The translations under genes and the position numbers were made by a program. Below are positions 14,326 to 62,284 of a stretch of 64,000 nt of DNA, piece by piece. Under the pieces are notes generated by a model. That model saw only the letters and a program-made list of their open reading frames with translations. It was not told the origin of the DNA and ran no database searches. Source of the stretch: Malacoraja senta (Eukaryota); NCBI GenBank assembly GCA_038087875.1, contig CM075993.1:9488001-9552000 (forward strand), in the 5' to 3' direction. Numbering within the stretch: position 1 is the first letter of the stretch; each line of letters opens with the position of its first letter.

Positions 14326-15927
14326 TTAATATTACACTACCTCTAGTTAACCTGGCTTCTGTTTAAATAAGAGTGATTCAAAAGAGATTCTATTTTTTCT
14401 CCGTGCGGTATTGTTCTCACTTGATAGAATTGTGTTGTGAATCAGTTTCTAGATTTGAATTATCTTTGTAAATCTAGCTTTCATTAAACCATTTAGCAAT
14501 TTTGCTCTGGCTTTTCAAATTAAAGTCAATTAAATGGTTTCCCGTCTAAAGTGTTTATGCTCCTATCATTAGACATTAAGTGTCAACTTGGCATCATTAA
14601 TTTGTTCCACATGAATTTGCTGTGCTTCAAAACAGAACACATTGCCTGCAGATCACTTGTTTTTCTAGCACATATCACACAATTATTGATCTAACTCGAA
14701 GAAAGTGACAGTAGACAAAAGTGCTGGAGAAACTCAGCGGGTGCGGCAGCATCTATGGAGCGAATGAAATAGGCAATTTTTCTGGCCGAAACCCTTCTTC
14801 AGACTGAAGTGACCCCAGGAATCATTTTCAGAAATAGGAGCCTGTGGGAATCCATTCACTGTTTATATTTGTTTTTCTACATCAGTGGCACACCTAATGA
14901 TGTACTAATTGCACAAAGCCTTTTTCCATCTGTACGTCATAATTTGGAGCTAATGGCTGAAACTATAACTCATGTTGAACAATCACATTAAAATCTGAGG
15001 GGATCTTGTGAATGTAAATAAGTTTAATTAAATTTGATATTTAAATACATTTTTCAAAACAATGAAGTTGAAAAAGCACATGACAGACAAAATGTACTGC
15101 TGACATCAAGAGATTTGACTTGGCAGTCTCAGAACTCACACACATCTTCAAAAATACACAGTATGCACCAACTTGTGCTTTCTCCTGCTTTGTGCTGAGG
15201 AGACGTTTAATGAGTAGGTGCATCAGAGCGATACCGAGGTCAGAACTCCATTACTGGACAGTTACAGCAATGACTAGTTATATAGGTGAGTTAGTGACCA
15301 AGTACTGGACAAGTCCATCTATGTAATCTCTATTGCCAGAGAGTGTTCAGAAACAGCACGTTCTATCTAGATGGAAAATGAACCGCAGCTGTTGGAAACC
15401 TGAAATAAAAACTGTATATCTAGAAACACTCAGCAGATCAGGCAGCATCTATGGAGACAGAAACAGTTAGCATTTCAGGTGGCAAGTTCAATGTCATATA
15501 TGATAAAGAGAGAAAGCAAATGTTTATATTGCAGAGAAAGGATAAGAACAGGATGGATAAGACAAAGGAAATACTTTTGAAGAAGGGTCTCGACCCGAAA
15601 TGTCACCCATGCCTTCTCTCCAGAGACACTGCCTGTCCCGCTGAGTTACTCCAACATTTTGTGTCTATCTTCAGTTTAAACCAGCATCTGCAGTTCCTTC
15701 CTACACAAAGGGAATACTTTTGATAGTCCAAGATTAGGGTTGCCTTGGTGAAGCCATCTGGTTGACAGGTTAAGAAAGTGAAAAAAACCCAGAAACTGTG
15801 CAATTCAAAGCTGTCAACTCTATTTGTCAACACCTAATTGAAGATAAGCAGGGAAACAGGAAGCACAGGTGCTGAACAAGGTAAAAGATCCAGATAGAAA
15901 TCCCATCACAGAGAGGAGCAAAGCTTC

Positions 15928-16601
15928 TTCTTCTTCTTCTTCTTCTTGTAGGATTCTGGCAGTGTAGACGCTGCTAAGCGTATTACTGCCCTCCACAGGT
16001 CAAAGTTTGAACTGAATTCTTACATACAGTCCTGTAACTTGCAGGAATTGAAGAACAGCCCTGGATATCAGTTGATGTTTCTCATTGTGTCCAAACAAAG
16101 ATAAAACAGAAAAAGCCTCAACTCCAAGTCCTGTCAGTCTAACAAACAATACTTTTCTTTCTACCCTATACTTTTTACATTCTAGGAAAACATGCTTAAC
16201 TGTCTCATTACTCCCACATTCACACAAGCCAGAAACATGTTTCCCTACAATGCACAAATAGTAATTTAACCCACAGTGTCCCAACCTCAATCTACACAGT
16301 TTAACTGAGTCCCTACGGGACAGAGATGTACAGAAACATATTTTCCTAACTTCAGATTGTATAGAAAAGTAGTGTCTACCCCTGACTTCCATTTCCCATC
16401 CTCTCTGCCATTCTTTTGTTAAGCCCTCTTTAATTATTTCTCTCAGTTCCACTCTCCCCAATGATACATGGATATCTATTTCTCTTCTTAAACTCTCCTT
16501 TGCTATGAGGTCCACCTGCTCATTCCCCCTCACCCCAGCATGCCCGGGAACCCAGCAAAAAGTGATGTTACACACAAACCCAATTCTAGAAAACACACTC
16601 A
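15928..16601 (-). mobile_element. 5'-truncated I-group (Nimb-like) LINE 3' end: RNase H C-terminus + CCHC finger
   Basis: Uninterrupted frame with WVPGHAGVRGNEQVD, RLRLGHCGLN and CECGSNETVKHVFLEC. (AAG)n tail and 14-bp TSD AGGAGCAAAGCTTC (15914-15927 / 16602-16615). Confidence 0.85.
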
Positions 16602-17897: not shown

Positions 17898-17951
17898 GGG
17901 GTGGGAGATTGCAACCTTCACGTGGTCCACCCTGTTTCAACAAATGCAATC
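17898..17951 (+). ncRNA. Predicted minimal HDV-like self-cleaving ribozyme (copy 1)
   Basis: P1 GGGGTGG/CCACCCT with G1-U wobble, P2 GATTGCA/TGCAATC, P3 ACC/GGT, L3 TTCACGT, J4/2 CAAA containing the putative catalytic C. Confidence 0.75.
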
Positions 17952-18038
17952 AACCTGGCGTGCACAATCAAATAAGATCAAATAGAACAAGTTGTCCTAC
18001 AACTTTAGGCTGTGCACGCCATACGCAAGAAGAAGAAG
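17898..18038 (+). mobile_element. Short ribozyme-headed non-autonomous retroelement with (AAG)n tail, copy 1
   Basis: TSD AAGACATGAT (17887-17896 / 18039-18048). Inserted in a CR1 relic. Colinear with 24482-24627. Confidence 0.85.
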
Positions 18039-18696
18039 AAGACATGATTAGGGAGCTTAATGAATGTATACTTTATTGTCACAGTGAAATTCTTTGCTTG
18101 CATACCTTGCCAAGGTATGCAATAGTCGCCCATGACGGGCACTTACAAAATTACGCGCCAGTTCCCCCTTTACTCTTCCCCCCCTTCCTCACGGTGGTCC
18201 CCCCCACGCTGGGTCTTCCTTTGTGAAGGAACCCCTGGGAGGCAGCGATCATAATATGATATTATTCAACCTGCAGTTTCAGTGGAAGAAGCTGAAATTT
18301 CAGGAAACTACAGAGGCATGAGGGAGGAGCTGGCTAAAGGGACCCTAAAAGGAATAATGGTGGAGCAGCAATGGCAGGAGTTTCTGGGAGTAATTCAGAA
18401 GACGCGGGAGACAATAGAAGGCAATTACAAATTGCAATAAGGGAAGAAAAGATGAAATATGAAGTTAAGCTAGCCAATAATATAAAGGAGGATACCAAAA
18501 GTGTTTTTAGATTTATAAAGTAAAATAGAGGCAAGAGTGGACATTGGACCGTTGGAAAATGATGCCAGAGAAGCAGTAATGGGGGTGCAAAGAATATGGC
18601 AGATGAACTGAATAATTTTTTTTGTCAGTCTACACAATGGAAGACACTTGCAATGTGCCAGAAATTCAAGTCAGGGGCAGTCACTGTTGCTGAGGA

Positions 18697-23547: not shown

Positions 23548-24481
23548 TAAGTCACTCCATCACTTTGTCTTATTTTTATACACCAGTTCAGTTTGGTTTA
23601 TTGTCACGTGTACAGAGGTACAGTGAAAAGTTTTTTGTCGCGTGCTAACCAGTCAGCAGAAACACAATACATGATTGTAATCGATCCATTTACAATGTCT
23701 AGATACAGTACACCCTCAGTTCCTTATTTATCCTTTAAATAAGGAGCTATATTGTTCCACCTTTAGTCGGCATGGATAATGAAATGAATTGGCTCCAGTT
23801 CTTTAAATCTTTATGGTCTATTTTATTACAGGGCATTAACAGCCTGACAGAACTCAGAGTTTCCCACGGAGTACTGAATCTCTCTCCAAACATCCACACC
23901 CCTGCACCAAACCCATTATGCTTCTGAATTATTACTAGTGAATATGTAACTTGTGTCAAAATGTGTAGGAAGGAACTGCAGATGCTGGTTTACACCAAAG
24001 ATAGACACAAAATGCTGGAGTAACTCAGCGGGACAGGCAGCATCTCTGGAGAAGGAATGGGTGACGTTTTGGAACTTTTTCAGACTGAGAGTCAGGGGAA
24101 AGGGAAACGAGAGTTATGGACAGTGATGTAGAGAGATTTAGAACAAATGAATGAAAGATATGCAAAAAAGTAACGATGATAAAGGAAACAGGCCATTGTC
24201 AGCTGTTAGCTAGATGAGAAATGGAAGCTGGTGCAACTTGGGTGGGGGAGGGATGGAGAGAAGGAATGCAGGGGTTGCTATCATGTCTATCATGCCAAAA
24301 TGTTGCTTTGCACAGACCACTTTTTGTTGAGTTTTGCCCTTGAGGAAGTTTATTTTCTTTAGACCTGCTGAGTGCACTTCTGCAAACACAGCTCTCGCGG
24401 CTTGGATGGGAACAGTTATTGAACTGTTTTGTTGTTTATTATGGTATCTACTGAGTATTATAGTTTATGGTGCTGCATGTA

Positions 24482-24535
24482 GGGGTGGAAGATTGCAACC
24501 TTCACGTGGTCCGCCCTGTTTCGACTAATGCAATC
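24482..24535 (+). ncRNA. Predicted minimal HDV-like self-cleaving ribozyme (copy 2)
   Basis: P1 GGGGTGG/CCGCCCT, P2 GATTGCA/TGCAATC, P3 ACC/GGT, L3 TTCACGT, minimal P4 GT-TTCG-AC, J4/2 CTAA. Confidence 0.8.
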
Positions 24536-24627
24536 AACTCAACGTGCACAAACAGAAGATCAAATAGAGCAAGTTGTCCTACAACTTTAGGCTGTGCACG
24601 CCACATGAAAAAAGAAGAAGAAGAGAA
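24482..24627 (+). mobile_element. Short ribozyme-headed non-autonomous retroelement with (AAG)n tail, copy 2
   Basis: Perfect 13-bp TSD GGTGCTGCATGTA (24469-24481 / 24628-24640). Same 5' start as copy 1. Confidence 0.88.
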
Positions 24628-25409
24628 GGTGCTGCATGTAAAAATTTCATTGTTCCATTTTGGGGCATATGACAATAAAACACTATTGACACTCTTGCAT
24701 ACCACATGGATTACACACTTCACTACATTCCCCACCTTTTGCAGCCCACGTTATGACTTGTGCAGTACTCATAGGTCTAGTCTACACATGATCCATCATC
24801 AACAGTTGGCCCTGAACTCCTTCATCAGCAGTCATCTCTGGTGCAAAGACTGAAAACAACTGTTTCCTTCCCATTTCTCTGCTTTAAAAACAATGGTATA
24901 TTCAGACATGCTCAGGATCAAAGTCCATCTTTGTATCGTGTAGAAACCTTTTGAGGCCCAAACTTAATTTTAAACTTTAAAATTTAAAGAACAGGGAAAT
25001 CAGGGGTTGGTGATCTGTGTAAATGGTGAAGTGATGCCCACAATTAAGCACATCTCCAGGTCCATAAGTGTCCTTTCTATAATCCAGAACATGGAGATTA
25101 AGGAACAAAAGCCATTCAGTCCATTGTTGAGCTGCAGTGCTCACTGGATGCTCTAATCCACATTCAGTCCGGCTCTTCAATGTAACACTGCACCTGGTGT
25201 CAGGATCACATGTCAGATCTCTATTCATTTCCATGACAACAGTCAACAGTCGTTGGCTCTACCTACGTTAGGTCACAACAGTCACAAAATGCCAGAACAA
25301 CCCAGTGTGTCAGGCAGCATCCCTGGTGAATAGCTATCTTGACTACACTTCATCCCACCCTGCCTCCATAGCTATATTGACTACACTTCTTCCCACCCTG
25401 CTTCCTTTA

Positions 25410-26599: not shown

Positions 26600-27492
26600 G
26601 TAGATTTTCAAAGTCTACAGAGAGATTTAGGCCATTTGGAAGAGTGGGCTGAAAGATGGCAGATGGAGTTTAATGCTCACAAATGTGAGGTGCTACATTT
26701 CGGCAGGACAAATCAAAATAGAATGTACATGGTAAACGGTAGTGAATTGAGGAATGCAGTTGAACAGAGGGATCTAGGAATAACTGTGCATAGTTCCCTG
26801 AAGGTAGAATCTCATGTAGATAGGGTGGTAAAGAAAGCTTATAAATCAGAGCATTGAATATAGAAGTTGGGATGTAATGTTAAAATTGTACAAGGCATTG
26901 GTGAGGCCAATTCTGGAGTATGGAGTACAATTTTGGTCGCCTAATTATAGGAAGGATGTCAACAAAATAGAGAGAGTACAGAGGAGATTTACTAGAATGT
27001 TGCCTGGGTTTCAGCAACTAAGTTACAGAGAAAGGTTGAACAACTTAGGTCTTTATTCTTTGGAGCGCAGAAGGTTAAGAGGGCACTTAATAGAGGTCTT
27101 TAAAATTATGAGCGGGTTAGACAGAGTGGACGTGGATAAGCTTTTCCCATTGAGAGTAGGGAAGATTCAAACAAGGGGACATGACTTGAGAATTAAGGGA
27201 CAGAAGTTTAGCGGTAACATTAGGGGGAACTTCTTTACTCAGAGAGTGGTAGCTGTGTGGAATGAGCTTCCAGTGGAAGTGGTGGAGGCAGGTTCAATGT
27301 TATCCTTTAAAAATAGTTTGGATGGGTATATGGATGGGAAAGGAATGGAGGGTTATGGTCTGAGTGCAGGTAGATGGGACTAGGGGGAAGTAATTAAAAA
27401 AATAAAAAAATAAAAAAATAAAAAATGTTCGGCACGGACTTGAAGGGCCGAGATGGCCTGTTTCCGTGCTGTTATGGTTATATGATTATATG
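26600..27492 (+). mobile_element. Relatively young CR1 3' fragment
   Basis: ORFs 26636-26857 and 26877-27383 are CR1 ORF2 C-terminus (LYKALVRPILEYGVQFWSP...FFTQRVVAVWNELP). Confidence 0.9.
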
Positions 27493-40726: not shown

Positions 40727-43700
40727 TTTTTTAAAAATATTTTTATTTATTAGAAGTATTGTACATTGCAGTGATATCAACCAAAAATAACATAATACAT
40801 TTCTTGTACCACTTCTTATTTGTAACTTTAAAAAGAAGAAAAATAGAAAGAGTTAGATAAGATAGTGAGTGCGTGAATGAGTGGTCCAGAGAAACCCGTA
40901 GGAATGTAAACCACAAGAAAGAGTTCAAAAGAAAACCAAAGAAAAAGAAAGAAAAAAAATAGAGAACATAAGAAAGTAAAATAAGATAAGATAAAAGGGA
41001 TGTACCTACTTCGTATCTTTACACACCCCTCACCAGGTCCTGAAACCATTTATTTTCAAAGTTATGTTGCACCCTATGCTTGTAATAAGTCGATAAATGG
41101 AGACCAAATCTTTTGGAAATGGTCTTATTTGCCTGCTAAGAGGAATCTCATGTCTTCCAGGTGTAACAGTTCGGACATATTTGAAATCCACATTTTTATC
41201 GTTGGTGTGGGAGCGTTTTTCCAGAATTTAAGTATAAGTTTTTTTGCCATTATTAAGCCGTAATTAAGAAAGCTCTTTTGGAACAAAGTCAGATCAAAGC
41301 TGGCTTCCATTGTTCCGAAAATAATCAGTTCTGCGTTCGGTTTCAGTTTTATTTTAAATAATTTTGTAAAAATTTCAAAGATTTCATTCCAAAATGTTTG
41401 GATTTTTATACAAAAAACAAAAGAATGTGCTATAGTTGCTTCTTGGGATAGACATTTATCACAGATGGGAGAGACATTCGGATAAAATTTACTTATTTTA
41501 GTTTTTGAGTAATATAGTCTATGTAAAGTTTTAAATTGGATTCGAACGTGTCTTACATTAATCGAGCATTTGTGTACATATAGCAAGTGTTTATCCCAAC
41601 TCTCTTTCGAGATTTTTATAGCTAGTTCTTGTTCCCAATCTCTTCTAATTCTATCTGATGATGGGCTGGGAAGATCATCAAAGACCCCTCCCACCCCAAC
41701 CATGGACTGTTTGCCCTCCTCCCATCAGGGAGGCGGTACAGGAGCCTCAGGTCTCGTACCAGTAGGATGAGGAACAGCTTCTACAATTATACCGTCGCAT
41801 TGCTGAACTCGGAGTCCCGCCGATAGATTCCTCCGGTCCCTCCTTCCCCATTGTTAATTATTCTGTATTTTTGATTATTCTGTATCCTCTTTTTTTTTTA
41901 AATTTCTACATTGCACTACTACTACGGACTGACGCAAAACTGCATTTCGTTGTACCCATACTCAGTATTTGTGCAATGACATTAAAGTTGAATTGAATTG
42001 AATTGAATTGAATATTTCTATATTTAGGATGATATTATACGTATGATATTAAATTAGTTGATTCCGCCTTTATATTCATTGCATCGTCTAATAGGTCTGG
42101 AGACAAATTTTGATATTCTTGTGTATATTTTTTCAAATAGTCACGGATTTGAAAATATTTAAAATATTGATTACTTCTCAGATTGTATTTAAGTTGTAGT
42201 TGGTGAAATGATTTAAAAAATTCCATTATCATACATGTCTACAAACGTTTTAATTCCTATTCTATCCCAGTATGTAAATGATTTATCTATAATAGATGTT
42301 TTAAACGACAGATTATTAACTATTGGTGAGAGAAGCGATAGGTTTCTTAATTTTAAGGTTAATTTTATTTGTTTCCAAATTCTAATTGTACTATGAATAA
42401 TTGGATTTTTACTGTATATTGTATTATTCAATTTTGTTGGTGAGAGAAGGATCGCTCCTATATTAAAAGGGGAGCAATCCTCTCTCTCCATTACTATCCA
42501 ATCCACCTGCTGGACAGAGTTTTCCAACAGGTGAATCACATTTTTGACATTTGCTGCCCAATAATAATACAAAAAATTAGGGAGTGTTAATCCACCAAAT
42601 TCTTTAGGTTTGCACAAATGTCCTCTTTGAATTCTATGGGATTTATAGTCCCATATAAAATTTGTGATATCGGCATCCAGTTTTAAAAAAAACTTTTTTG
42701 GTAAGTATATTGGTATTGATTGGAATAGATATAAAATTTGTGGTAGAAAGATCATTTTTATAGCATTTATTCGGCCTGTTAAAGACATCGGAAGTTTTCC
42801 AAAATTTAATCAGGGCGTTTAAGTTATTAAGTAGGGGCATATAGTTTGCATTAAATAAAGATTTATATTTTCTAGTAATTTCAATTCCCAAATATTTAAA
42901 TTTTTCTGAAGCAATTTTAAAAGGGAATTTTAACAGGTGTGTTGAGTCTTGAGGTTTTATCGTCATAATTTCACTTTTATTCCAATTTATTCTATATCCT
43001 GAAAAGGATCCAAATTCCTCTATTAGATTTAATATATTTGGTATACTGATTTGTGATTTTGTGATGTATAGTAGTACATCATCTGCGTATAATGATATTT
43101 TATTATTTGAGTATTTTCTATTATAACCATGGATATTCAGATGCGTTCTAATGCTTTCAGCTAAAGGTTCTATTACGAGAGCAAATAGCAGAGGTGATAG
43201 TGAACATCCCTGTCTATTGCCCCTTGATAATTGAAATTTCGGGGACAACATGATATTAGTTAATATTCTAGCAGTGGGCCTGTCATATAATAGTTTTACC
43301 CATGAGATAAAATTCTCTCCCATTTGAAATGTTTGCAATACTTTAACAAGGTAGTCCCATTCCACTTGATCGAATGCTTTTTCTGCGTCCAATGAAATAA
43401 TTGATAAGTCTTGTTCTTCGGTTTTATATGAATGCATTATATTAAACAGACGTCTCAGATTATTGCATGAGTATCTCTTGGGTATAAACCCCGTTTGATC
43501 CGCATTTATTAATTTACTAACATATTTACTTAATCTTCTAGCTAATGTTTTCGCTAGTATTTTTTGATCTGTATTTAACAGCGCAATAGCTCTGTATGAA
43601 CCCGGGTCTTCTAAATCTTTATCTTTTTTAGGTATAAGTGTAATCGTTGATTCCGCTAATGTTTCTGGTAGTGTTTGTTCTTTGAAAGCATATGTATACA

Positions 43701-45164
43701 TTTTATGTAACCGTGGTGTAATTATCTCATTAAATCTTTTATAAAATTCATTACTAAATCCATCTGGTCCTGGTGTTTTTCCATTCTTTAGTGAGTTTAT
43801 TGTTTCTTCTATTTCCTTAATTGAGATTTGTGCTCCTAATTCCTCTTGTTCGATCAAGTTAAGTTTTGGGAGATTACAGTTATCCAAGAACTCTATAACT
43901 TTAGTACTATCTGCTAACGTTTTAGATGTATATACATTTTGATAAAATTGAGCAAATCTTTTATTAATATCATTAGGTAGTGTTAACAATTCACCATTAT
44001 CTGATTTAATCTTTAAAATCATATGATCTTTTTCCTGTTTTTTCAATTGACGTGCAAAAAGTTTATGCGGTTTTCACCAAATTCAAAATTTTCCTGTTTT
44101 GTCATTTGAAATAATCTTATAACTTTTGCTGATAATATTTTATTTAATTTAAATTTCAATATTGTTATTTTTATTATGTTTACAGTATCTATAGTTGGCT
44201 CTTTAGCGTTATTTAGATCCAGTTGTCTAATTCATTCTTCTAACTGCCTTTGTTCATGCTTATTATTTTTATTTAGAAAAGCTTGATATGAGATTATAGA
44301 TCCTCTGATAAATGCTTTAAAAGATTCCCATAGTAAAGTTGGTGAAATATCTGGGGTGTCATTAGTCTCGAAAAAAAGTTCCATCTGTTGTTTTAAATAT
44401 ATACCACCTTGTGAATCATTTAGAATTTGAGGATTAAACCTCCAAAACGATTTATTATTAGGCATTCCTTCAAGTTTAAAAAAAAAGTTAACGGGGAGTG
44501 ATCAGAAATAATGCTGTTGTGATATTTTGGGTTCATTGTATAGGGAATTAATTTTGTGTCCACTAGAAAATAGTCGATACGTGAGTAGGTTTTGTGTACC
44601 ATTGAATAAAACGAGTATTCCCTTCCAGCAGGGTTAGCGATCCTCCAAACATCTGTTGTATTTGTATTTTTTATGTATGTATTTAGGAGTTCCCTAGTTT
44701 TAGATTTTGTGTTACCCCTGTTTTGTTGTGAAGATTTATCCAGGTACGGATCTAAAACGCAGTTAAAGTCTCGCCCAATTATCACGTTTTGATAATTAAT
44801 TGAAATTATATTCAGGATTTTATTAAAAAATTGGGGATTATCAAAATTAGGTGCATAAATATTTACCAAGGTGATTGGAGTAGCATGAATCTCTCCGGTA
44901 ACTATGAGATATCTCCCTTCCTTATCTATTATGATATTCTTTGATTTAAATGGTATACCTTTGCGAATAATAATTGCCGTACCTCTAGATTTAGAGATAT
45001 ATGAAGATTGATATGTTTGGCCTATCCAATTTGCCTTCAATCTAGTCTGAGCTTGCAATTTCAGATGTGTTTCTTGTAAGAAGTTTATGTCCGAATTGAG
45101 CGACTTCAGTTGTGCGAAAATCTTACCCCTTTTAATAGGTTCGTTAGCACCCCTTATGTTCCAA
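40727..45164 (-). mobile_element. L1-clade LINE: near-complete but frameshifted ORF2 (APE endonuclease, RT, Cys-rich C-terminus), no ORF1
   Basis: Motifs WNIRG, FLQETH, NIYAPN, SRIDYF, ISDHSP; KTPGPDGF, SLDAEKAFD, RQGCSLSP, LYADD. AATAAA and A-tail. 15-bp TSD GTGACATAATATTCT (40712-40726 / 45165-45179). Confidence 0.93.
41665..42012 (+). mobile_element. Rex1/Babar-type LINE 3' fragment nested in the L1
   Basis: KIIKDPSHPNHGLFALLPSGRRYRSLRSRTSRMRNSF motif and (GAATT)n tail. L1 frame resumes on both sides. Confidence 0.8.
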
Positions 45165-45471
45165 GTGACATAATATTCTGTGCTGTTTCCTTTCTCTTTT
45201 TGCACTACCAGTTGTATTCATGTGTGGTTTGATTGCATGGAATGATTTATCTTGAAATGTTTTCATTCTATCCCAGTACTTGTGACAATAAACCAATACG
45301 AATACGCAGTAGCTGCAATTGTTGCATTGTGTTATATCCAGTGGCTATTCTTTAAATAATGTACTCGTTGCAACACATTGGTTTATTTGTGAGTTGTGTC
45401 AAACCATTTATTACTTGGCGACTTGGCGGCTTGCAATGTTTCTGTCCTTCATTTTAGTTTACAACTATATG

Positions 45472-45596
45472 ACGGTCTCACAATGGCGCGGCGGTAGAGT
45501 TGCTGCTTTACAGCACCTGGGATCCGGGTTTCATCTGACTACGGGTGCTGTCTGTATGGAGTTTGTACGTTCTCCCAGTGACCTGCGTGGGTTTTT
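45472..45596 (+). mobile_element. HE1-type SINE 5' half truncated by the LTR element
   Basis: Head through gacctgcgtgggtttt, then the LTR begins. Confidence 0.78.
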
Positions 45597-45598
45597 AT

Positions 45599-47515
45599 TG
45601 TGATATTGCAAGGACTACTTTGTTATATCACAAGGACTACTTTGTTTGCCTGCGTAGCAACATGTATATGTGGGAATGACGTAATATGGGCACGGCACTC
45701 TGGTTCCAGATGGCCGTGAAATAAACAGAACCTTGATTCATGCTCAGCTTCAAACCCCTAATTACGTGTACTTTTGGTCATTCCAGACTCATAACAATGG
45801 TATAACAGATAATGGTATAACATGAAGTACAACATGGTGGCAGCGGTTTGTGTGATTTAGCCCGAGAAAGAAACAGAAAAAAGAAAGCCCTAGTAAAATG
45901 GACACTTTCCAGCTCAGTAAAGAATGCTAGAAATGCATCTCGACAGGGCCACTACACCTGGTTGGACGTCAGCACCGAGCTAGTGACGGGACACTGCAAG
46001 CAGCTGAGGGTGGTGAGTGAAGGCCCACATTGCGCCCCAGCCCTGTGCAGAGCTGAGTTCGGAAGGCGGAGAGACCAGCCACACACGGGGGCGCTGCGAC
46101 CGGTGAGACCGAACGCTTATGGAGACGAAGCAAGCCGAAAGGCTGTATTTTCTTTAAAACCTAAGAGCTTTAAAGTTAAAAGCTAGAAGCAGTATTGAAA
46201 ACAACAAAAGCTGCAGAGGCAGTATTGAAAAAGCTGTGTATGGAAAACGCTCGAGATAAGCAGAAGGCTGTTCGAGATAAGCCGTATTGAAAATGACTGT
46301 TACCAAGGAAGACATAAACAAGGGACCTTGGAAATCTCAAATTTAATGATGTTTTGAATTCTAACTTGATAAAATGTACTGAAGTATGATTGTTTACCAT
46401 AAAAACTTGAAGGACCCCCCCCCTAAGATTGCGCAAGCCGTGTGTGGAACAGAAAAAATAATAATTTGTGTGTAAGGCTTAAAGCTTAATCATTTGTGTG
46501 CAAGCTTACATATAATATTAGAAGTGAATAATGGTACATAATTTAGTAAGATTTGGCAAATACAGGCAACATTGTACTAGTGTTTGAATTTGAAGCTCAT
46601 ATGTATATATATATATATATATATGTAGATTGCATGTAAGTGTATATAGTAATAACGATAACAAGAGGTGTGTGACTCTGTGATACGTTTGTTTTGAATC
46701 CAAATTTAATATTTCAAGTTAACGTGTTTACGCCGTATATGGCAAGTAACATGACTCGGTTACCTGAAATAAACTGGCAAGTGCTGGACATTGCCAATGA
46801 GTTCTCCTTGTTCAAGCAGAGGATGAAATTGTGCCTGCAAGACTTAGAAATCACATCGGTGTCTAAGTAGGCAACAAAGATAAAACTTGCTTTAGGAGTA
46901 GAAGGACTCCGTCGTTTGAATGCGTTAGGTCTGAGCGAAGAGAATCAAAACAAGCCAGAGGAGATATGGACATTCTTTGAGGGCCAGCTGAGGACAAAGG
47001 TAAATTTCAGAGTCCACAGGTTGGAGTCGATGTGGTATCGCCAGAAACCGGAAGAATTGCTCGATCAATTTGTGACCCAGTGTCGAGAAAAGAGTCTCCA
47101 ATGTAACTTCACTGATCCCGAGCTCAATGAAAGAATCATTGAGTTGATAATCGTGTCAACGCCCTAGGAAGGTTTACAGCAAGAGCTTATACAGAAGCTT
47201 GCGGGATACACCATTCCAGAGGCGCTTACATTAGGCAGGCAGTATGAGGCCATTGCGGCAGGCAGTATGAGGCCATTGCGGCAGGCAGGCAGGCAGTGCA
47301 TTGCAGGTTTAGAGCCTGGGTCTTGCAATATAGATGCAGTCAAGACAAGAGGGACAACGAAGCAAAAGCTACAAGATAAGGAGAGACAAAACCAACTTCA
47401 AGGAGCCAGCCACCCTTCATCTCAAGGAGAAGGCCACACCACACATAGATGCACCAAGGAAACGCAGTGTCCATATCAGAGACAAGTTGCGGGCCGAGTT
47501 GGATAAAATGGACAT
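45599..47515 (+). mobile_element. Truncated Gypsy-type LTR element (5' LTR ~45599-45834, PBS, decayed gag)
   Basis: CA|TGGTGGCAGCGG PBS (tRNA-Leu-like). Gag-like WTFFEGQLRTKVNFRVHRL..RQKPEELLDQFVTQCR..CNF with stops, then pre-RT LHLKEKATPHIDAPRK. No 3' LTR seen. Confidence 0.78.
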
Positions 47516-55128: not shown

Positions 55129-55481
55129 TAACTTTTTATACAGATTTTGACCCTTGGAATTGTGCGCACTTTCTAATTTCTTATCATCAATAACAATACG
55201 TTCTCAAAACATTGATATACAAATGCAATAACACTAATACAAGTAAACCTACATGCTATTTAATCCTTTATTTAATTTTCAATATCAAGAACCATGTAGT
55301 GTGCGTCAATCCTAAAACATTGGGGTACGTCAATGAATACCAATCAGGGACATTGATTTGCGTCAATGAATGACTAAAGGTTGTTGTGCTGCACAGCTAT
55401 CCTAACCTTGGTCATACTGCAGTTTCCACAGAGTGTGACATTCACTTATTCAATGTGTTTCATTCTTCTCCTGTCTTTCAG

Positions 55482-55818
55482 ATGACTGACTCCGATGAAG
55501 CTGCTGTAATCAGACCCTCACTGAGTGAGGCCCAGGTGGTGGAGTTGGTCGGACGGTTGTACGGTCTGAAGGTTTTAAAAGTCAAACCACTGCCCAGTTA
55601 CATGGACCAGAACTTCCACGTCCTGGTGTGCGAGACCCAGGAAGGTGGAGATCACGGGAAGAGCTACGTCCTCAAGGTTCTAAACACTGCCGAGAGCCAA
55701 GAAGCTGATTTGGTGGAAGTACAAACACGAGTCATGATGTTCCTAAACCAGAAAGGTTTTCCTACAAACACACCAATCACAACCATTGATGGCAAGATTA
55801 TGTCCCTGGAGACAATCA
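55482..55818 (+). CDS. HYKK: Hydroxylysine kinase-like (HYKK/AGPHD1), coding exon 1
   Basis: ATG immediately follows a pyrimidine tract and AG (ctgtctttcag|ATG). Translates MTDSDEAAVIRPSLSEAQVVELVGRLYGLKVLKVKPLPSYMDQNFHV...YVLKVLN...FLNQKGFPT, matching the vertebrate HYKK N-terminus as I recall it. Ends at a GTGAGT donor (55819), phase 1. Confidence 0.93.
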
Positions 55819-55985
55819 GTGAGTTTCATTAATTGATTTTTCTGCATTTACAGATGTTTGATAATTGTCCACATTTTCATAATTCTCTGAAAATATTAAA
55901 ACTAATCAGAAACATCTTTTCAGCTTCGGAAGGATAAGACAGAGACAGAGTACATGACAAGAAAACTGTGTTCTCTATTTTGAAG

Positions 55986-61774: not shown

Positions 61775-61808
61775 TGGTAAAATGTTGCAACATTTGTATG
61801 TCCAACAG

Positions 61809-62284
61809 GCATTATTCACGGGGACTTCACTCACACCAACATTCTTGTGCAGCCTCTTCATTCATCAGCTGATTGCTCCAATGCAGCAGGTCACATGCAG
61901 CAGGAGCTGGAGATTTCTGGCATCCTGGACTTTGGCGACATGGCTTGTGGTTACCATGTGTATGACTTGGCCATCTGCATAATGTATCTCACGCTGGACA
62001 GCGAAGACCCCCTGCATGTTGGAGGCCATATTCTCGCAGGTTTTGAGAGTGTGATCCCTTTAACTCTCCAGGAAAGAGATGCCTTGTATTTGCTGGTTCT
62101 TTGCAGGTTTTCCCAGGCGCTGGTTTTCGGGACATATAATATTCTGCGTTACCCAGACAATGAAGAGTACCTACAGATCACAACAAGAACTGGCTGGAAG
62201 CATTTGCACCAACTCTGGGAGCTAGGAAAAGAAGCAGTGGAGAAGATTTGGTTTGAGACGGCCAAGTCCTACCTCACTCTGTGA
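61809..62284 (+). CDS. HYKK: HYKK-like coding exon 4 (catalytic HGD..N and DFGD motifs, stop codon)
   Basis: caacag acceptor. Translates SIIHGDFTHTNILVQ...ISGILDFGDMACGYHVYDLAICIMY...VGGHILAGFESVIPLT...TGWKHL...KEAVEKIWFETAKSYLTL*. The four exons sum to 1137 nt (378 aa + stop) with no frame break. Possible ATTAAA polyA signal at ~62352. Confidence 0.95.

Follow-up and report, generated by a model that had tools for sequence, protein, structure and literature searches.

A 146-bp noncoding retroposon of Malacoraja senta joins the two ends of a likely Vingi LINE and begins with a predicted P4-less HDV-like ribozyme

Ribozyme-headed retroposons that retain the two ends of a partner LINE are already known from the published accounts of NARTc, RIME and the R2 SIDEs. 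NARTc and RIME are the non-autonomous partners of L1Tc and ingi, and the HDV-like ribozyme of L1Tc (L1TcRz/Pr77) cuts at position +1 (PMC3185411; PMC4035085), while the R2 SIDEs are described as ribozyme-headed internal-deletion derivatives (PMC3414825). According to the 2018 survey by Kojima, bipartite elements arise in the clades RTE, Ingi, Vingi and R2, and the survey does not count Vingi among those bearing a ribozyme (PMC5786205). Vingi LINEs are described as compact, with a single ORF encoding apurinic endonuclease (APE) and reverse transcriptase (RT) domains and without RNase H (PMC13708176). Minimal HDV-like ribozymes (drz-Mtgn-1, theta) have been reported in gut phages and in metagenomes, where they frequently sit behind tRNAs; their origin and function are described as open in the paper and its preprint, and the preprint's scan of human, mouse and protist genomes found no minimal ribozymes (PMC10879173). 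The published reports of the P4-less form that we found all came from phages and metagenomes. Our literature search, with repeat libraries and patents outside its scope, returned no report of a Vingi ribozyme or of the element family described here, and earlier surveys may list such elements.

The retroposon lies in a 64,000-nt stretch of the M. senta genome (the window), where it occupies 146 bp (24482–24627) between the copies of a 13-bp target site duplication (TSD). Every part that an earlier note on this DNA had proposed was recovered (Table 1): P1, P2, P3 and P1.1 are all present in the order of the nested double pseudoknot, G1 is the first base after the 5′ TSD, so that the predicted cleavage site coincides with the 5′ end of the element, and a 3′ stem with an inner hairpin is followed by an (AAG)n-type tail. 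The tRNA, 5S or 7SL head and the A and B boxes of Pol III SINEs were not found in the 146-bp element; a tRNA gene search returned nothing and an A-box/B-box regular expression gave no match, in agreement with the same note. A second copy in the window has its own TSD, and its fifth P1 pair is U-A, versus U.G in the copy at 24482.

Table 1. Features of the element, of its window and of related loci (positions refer to the window unless a locus is named)
Feature	Position	Strand	Remark
5′ TSD	24469..24481	+	13 bp; last base directly before G1
Predicted P4-less HDV-like ribozyme	24482..24535	+	54 nt
P1	24482-88/24511-17	+	G1-U wobble
J1/2	24489-90	+	AA
P2	24491-97/24529-35	+	
P3	24498-500/24508-10	+	
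L3	24501-07	+	
P1.1	C24503-G24518	+	1 bp, pairing possible
Loop in place of P4	24519-24	+	6 nt
Predicted catalytic C	C24525	+	within C-N-A-A junction
Match to partner LINE nt 1-79	24482..24560	+	ribozyme and start of 5′ UTR; aligned to L337, L333
Linker	24561..24573	+	13 nt; first 8 nt repeat LINE nt ~68-75, remainder without traced source
Match to last codons, stop codon (24588-90) and 3′ UTR of partner LINE	24574..24607	+	
3′ stem	24543-50/24593-600	+	encloses inner hairpin; 3′ arm in LINE-3′-end segment
(AAG)n-type tail	24608..24627	+	common to element and LINE
3′ TSD	24628..24640	+	
Second copy of element	17898..18042	+	88% identical, own TSD
3′ fragment of young Nimb-like LINE	15925-16600	-	related loci L098-L109
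Presumed CR1/L2-type fragment	26832-27383	+	
Decayed L1-type element	41125-46186	-	L1 similarity used in RT tree
Exon presumed to resemble hydroxylysine kinase	55374-55832	+	
Exon presumed to resemble hydroxylysine kinase	61781-62284	+	
LINE copies with inverted ribozyme head	L274, L280, L281, L284, L288, L300, L310, L312, L313, L316, L317		
Family D match to CPEB3 model	L430:686-769	+	RF00622
Family D match to CPEB3 model	L427:3816-3899	-	RF00622
Family D match to CPEB3 model	L428:3869-3952	-	RF00622

As far as the published descriptions go, the element resembles NARTc and RIME in being short and noncoding, in combining the two ends of a LINE and in its HDV-like head with a predicted cut at +1 and a 1-bp P1.1, whereas its vertebrate host, a partner lacking RNase H, the 54-nt P4-less predicted ribozyme and the (AAG)n tail set it apart. 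The Vingi-1_EE derivatives likewise join the 5′ end to the 3′ end of a LINE that has a single ORF and lacks RNase H (PMC5786205), and the R2 SIDEs, as described, have the same architecture, although R2 is rDNA-specific with an RLE and the present element is dispersed and of the APE type. The nested double pseudoknot without P4 and the short J1/2 and L4 are those of the minimal HDV-like ribozymes (PMC10879173), but unlike the phage and metagenome forms this one stands at the head of a retroposon of which a vertebrate genome carries thousands of copies. The published heads of mollusc LP-SINEs were compared by eye with the element and were not similar; these heads, which also occur in Nimb and RTE LINEs, have a structured look and may represent an unrecognised ribozyme (PMC4758252).

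A core 22-mer of the element occurred 2,769 times in the 1.94-Gb genome of M. senta, a looser core pattern gave 4,930 matches and a 19-mer from the 3′ end gave 5,538 exact matches, with zero matches for the reversed controls of the latter two, and the genome contains about 5,000 or more copies. For an unbiased view of the 5′ end we took the first 100 copies selected by the 3′ 19-mer alone, four of which were segmental duplicates. These started at nt 1 in 78 cases and at nt 2 in 10, with one start each at nt 3 and nt 6 and the remaining 10 further inside; the shared 5′ end that the earlier note had proposed as a check was thus found (88/100 starting at nt 1-2). All 30 of the best matches began at G1, in a sample biased by having been chosen for similarity. 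The first heptamer was intact in 70 of the 96 non-duplicate copies, and 57 of these 70 had an exact TSD of 7–14 bp, which abutted G1 in 31, overlapped ambiguously with G1-G2 in 13 and was separated from it by 1–3 extra bases in 13. The base preceding G1 was a T in 38/70 of the intact-heptamer copies. Words of the element were also present in sequencing runs of seven organisms, five of them at high share, and in four other organisms the largest 5′ junction among those listed corresponded to 24482 (495, 424, 312 and 515 contigs). RNA-labelled runs contained the element only within contigs, mostly with flanks attached, and such contigs show neither cleavage nor strand.

Among the copies we also noticed a shorter second derivative, in which LINE nt 1 to ~90 is joined directly to the last ~25 nt and the tail (L142, L145, L151, L156, L158, L159, L162). 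A DNA-transposon-like repeat adjoins the 3′ part of the element at a TTA site in several other copies (L143, L146, L148, L149, L155, L157, L160, L167, L168), and this probably reflects insertion of the repeat at that site.

Three of the 100 sequences chosen by their 3′ end were the 3′ ends of a LINE, with a reading frame ending in a C-terminal zinc knuckle, and the last codons, stop codon, 3′ UTR and (AAG)n tail of this LINE (family A) equal the 3′ end of the element. A near-full copy of about 3.1 kb (L333) runs from ribozyme nt 8 into a single APE-RT-zinc-knuckle frame, in which a search for RNase H gave no match, and a further copy (L337) retains G1 followed by the LINE 5′ sequence. Alignment to both resolves the element into LINE nt 1–79, the 13-nt linker, the last ~33 nt of the LINE and the tail; a linker derived from an inverted piece of the LINE was considered and is unsupported by this alignment. 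With both ends matching one LINE, no ORF, TSDs and a LINE-type tail, the element has the make-up of a bipartite non-autonomous LINE derivative. The sequence comparison therefore changes what the earlier note had called a ribozyme SINE: a multi-copy, ribozyme-headed retroposon without a tRNA head it is, but it is an internal-deletion derivative of a LINE and not a new kind of SINE, its predicted ribozyme having been brought along with the LINE's own 5′ end. The ATG at 24528–24530, inside J4/2–P2′, is in frame with the LINE ORF (L333:98-1363), and a second in-frame ATG follows ~60 nt downstream.

Family A copies are decayed (about 85–96% alike), with no intact ORF among the LINE copies found. 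Homologues of the LINE protein are APE-RT proteins of ~1,000 aa, many of them on contigs of 3.1–3.5 kb. The single ORF with APE and RT, the absence of RNase H, a length of ~3.1–3.2 kb and the ~1,000-aa frames of sister families correspond to the outline of Vingi, an outline that RTE LINEs fit as well, and the partner LINE likely belongs to the Vingi clade. A quick RT tree, which contained no named Vingi, Ingi or RTE reference and from which families F and G were left out, placed families A–E with the ~1,000-aa homologues and separate from both Nimb and L1 (SH-aLRT 98). Three earlier pattern searches, aimed at a LINE with this same 3′ end, had returned only truncated, deleted or DNA-element-interrupted copies (17/17, 30/48 and 30/45 read), because the LINE carries letters that the patterns excluded, and a DNA search with a stretch of L278 matched only itself. 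Scans for distant relatives gave one locus in metagenomes, 45 in prokaryote bins and none in viral sequences; the ribozyme descriptor matched 0/46 of these loci, which mostly lack 5′ ends.

Of 42 LINE copies of family A picked through their C-terminal region, 11 had an inverted ribozyme head at the 5′ junction, up to about 2.5 kb away from its normal place, and the TSD abutted the inverted piece in the three copies checked by eye. This looks like second-strand priming at nt ~70–330 that extends back to the RNA's 5′ terminus, often near nt 79, where the 5′ part of the mini-element ends, and it hints that the LINE protein holds the RNA 5′ end near the target. Pairing between the 5′ and 3′ ends was assessed in families A–E, where 23, 103, 15, 5 and 48 of 300 shuffles, respectively, reached the observed run, and general pairing was not established.

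Within the element family, the predicted fold was assessed in several ways. A descriptor of the HDV-like fold, written with the element sequence already in view and hence not blind, matched only the two element copies in the window, and gave no matches on both strands of 20 × 64 kb of order-1 Markov resamples (2.56 Mb) or in a further 4 Mb of resampled controls. The sole ribozyme match in Rfam was HDV-F-prausnitzii at exactly the 54 nt of the predicted ribozyme, with 16 bits where the cut-off is 44 and with models that contain P4; the score being below threshold, Rfam alone makes no ribozyme call. ViennaRNA, which is unable to fold a pseudoknot, gave z 0.4, and the constrained halves of the fold had energies of -12.4 and -7.3 kcal/mol. 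The core positions, which we assumed from the HDV literature (the G1 wobble, U and G in L3, and the catalytic C followed by N-A-A), are all occupied as expected. In an alignment of 86 copies (10/96 dropped, under 40/60 identity), U20 was retained in 84/86, G25 in 79/86, the catalytic C in 80/86 and the two adenines in 85/86 and 84/86, while all 18 pairs and five core residues were retained together in only 38/86. Within the ribozyme, variants above 10% were confined to J1/2, the fifth P1 pair (U-A/U.G), the loop and the position that follows the catalytic C. Where CpG had decayed, the change that preserves the pair predominated in P1′ (17:4, p 0.007), the one that preserves the C predominated at the catalytic C (13:4, p 0.049), and decay in L3 was symmetric (5:4). 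The crude measure of depth-summed contigs from four other organisms gave a mixed picture: G25>A (5.5–8.8%) exceeded C24>T (<3%), and the P1′ skew was absent in one of the four runs. Double-sided compensatory change in P1–P3 was not found among the 86 copies, which had only one one-sided change.

Compensatory changes were found between families. A search with a distant homologue identified six more Vingi-like LINE families (B–G) in the same genome, each beginning with an HDV-like fold of different sequence, and in the families with both ends read (B, C and D) G1 directly adjoins the TSD. Families D and E contain long open frames of 986–1,014 aa (sister families at L419-L438). When families A, B, C, D, F and G were threaded onto the fold, with two copies of D and with E omitted for its imperfect P2, a family's own strands paired at 93/96 positions versus 295/480 for strands swapped between families. 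Per helix, own versus swapped pairs were 40/42 and 143/210 in P1, 18/18 and 65/90 in P3, and 35/36 and 87/180 in P2, where placing P2′ by best complementarity inflates the count. Compensatory changes between families occur in P1, P2, P3 and P1.1, with the P1.1 C-G replaced by U-A in family C, and family E has a 2-bp P1.1. The covariation proposed in the earlier note as a check on the fold is thus found across six LINE families, but not within the family itself, and on this comparative evidence the HDV-like fold it claimed is supported. J1/2 measures 1–3 nt in all threaded families. Since families B–G carry 19–44 nt with a helix at the position where A has 6 nt without a predicted helix, family A has lost P4, already at the stage of the LINE. 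Tandem repeats of the 5′ part of the ribozyme lie upstream of G1 in L427, L428 and L434, which suggests repeated template jumps at the 5′ end.

We consider it probable that the noncoding element is made up of 79 bases from the start and ~33 from the finish of a single-ORF, likely Vingi LINE, together with the tail, and that its head is a P4-less ribozyme cutting before G1. The chief rival to this view, which we regard as unlikely, is that the head is a relic crippled by the loss of P4, with the uniform 5′ end arising from an internal Pol II promoter or from a stable fold that blocks decay. The first 77 nt of L1Tc (Pr77) are reported to act as a promoter as well (PMC3185411; PMC3383444), compensatory pairs are absent within the family, P4 is missing and J1/2 is short at 2 nt, a length also seen in families C and D; a 1-nt J1/2 spacer in the Agam-2-1 ribozyme is reported to give little cleavage (PMC4908430). 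Ribozyme activity of the element may indeed be low or lost, because the sister families show nothing equivalent to the 6-nt loop in place of P4. Against a relic, subfamily variants avoid the core, the skews in CpG decay run towards keeping the pair and the catalytic C, the P4-less form was already present in the LINE and has been retained over thousands of insertions and in at least five organisms, and P4-less ribozymes are reported to cleave in vitro (PMC10879173).

Two further alternatives have much smaller probabilities. That the element is a true SINE mobilised by a young Nimb-like I-group LINE with an (AAG)n end, a fragment of which lies in the window, is very unlikely. Such a LINE does exist, 5.1 kb long with two ORFs (ORF1 of ~400 aa and an ORF2 frame of 1,277 aa with RNase H), copies 99% identical and an (AAG)n tail, but it has only the tail in common with the element, the rest of the shared sequence being chance 11-16-mers; the 3′ end is not shared, and the element matches the Vingi-like LINE at its 5′ as well as its 3′ end. 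The earlier note's I-group partner stands as a LINE of Vingi/Ingi type, and not as the Nimb-like LINE of the window. Full copies of the latter have alternative short leaders, all joined at one point. Least credible of all is that the fold arose by chance because the 5′ end is rich in G/C; the Rfam score below threshold would fit it, but the resampled controls gave no matches, and six sister families have the same topology in the same place, one of which scores far above an Rfam ribozyme cut-off.

For the derivative of a Vingi-like LINE that we favour, a route can be proposed by analogy with the mechanisms published for R2 and L1Tc (PMC3185411, PMC8256844). A copy of the element would be transcribed by Pol II, either as read-through or by means of a promoter within the head, and the ribozyme would cut co-transcriptionally, as in R2 and L1Tc, leaving an RNA that has no cap and whose 5′ end is fixed. 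Acting in trans, the LINE protein, with its endonuclease and reverse transcriptase, would then recognise the 5′ and 3′ ends that the element has kept, and target-primed reverse transcription starting at the (AAG)n tail would, again as in R2 and L1Tc, yield insertions with TSDs of 7–14 bp.

Three copies of family D matched Rfam RF00622, the model of the mammalian CPEB3 ribozyme, at 63.8, 52.6 and 40.7 bits (cut-off 35); family B scored 19.9 and families A, C, E, F and G were not among the matches listed. Stretches of 18, 8 and 10 nt are identical between family D and RF00622, which differ by compensatory changes in P1 and P2. Family D is young, its copies being 95–98% alike with apparently intact open frames of 1,008 and 1,014 aa. 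The 146-bp element has the same L3 heptamer as the CPEB3 ribozyme and a 1-bp P1.1, whereas the CPEB3 ribozyme has a P4 and is a single intronic copy, and the element itself did not match RF00622. A trace of Vingi is reported in the human genome (X12_LINE, PMC5753468). Against descent, convergence among HDV-like ribozymes is real, R2 and HDV sharing 21/27 core bases (PMC8256844). The portions available of PMC10919898, PMC8233481 and PMC8256844 give no origin for the CPEB3 ribozyme, and we found no published report of a LINE origin. The chances that the mammalian CPEB3 ribozyme descended from a LINE 5′ ribozyme are about even. The broader proposal, that HDV-like ribozymes are general at the 5′ ends of vertebrate Vingi-type LINEs, that a working 54-nt P4-less form has spread and that CPEB3 is an exapted ancient Vingi-type 5′ end, with family D as a young, seemingly intact relative surviving in this genome, we put forward tentatively, as somewhat less probable than its negation. 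Through the family D match, the question of where the CPEB3 ribozyme came from becomes open to direct testing.

Vingi LINEs are reported to be under engineering for gene insertion with the native 5′ UTR kept (PMC13708176). If our reading is true, a single genome would offer a natural series of seven ribozymes for assay, 5′ ribozymes would extend to the Vingi clade, and minimal HDV-like ribozymes would gain both a eukaryotic home and a job.
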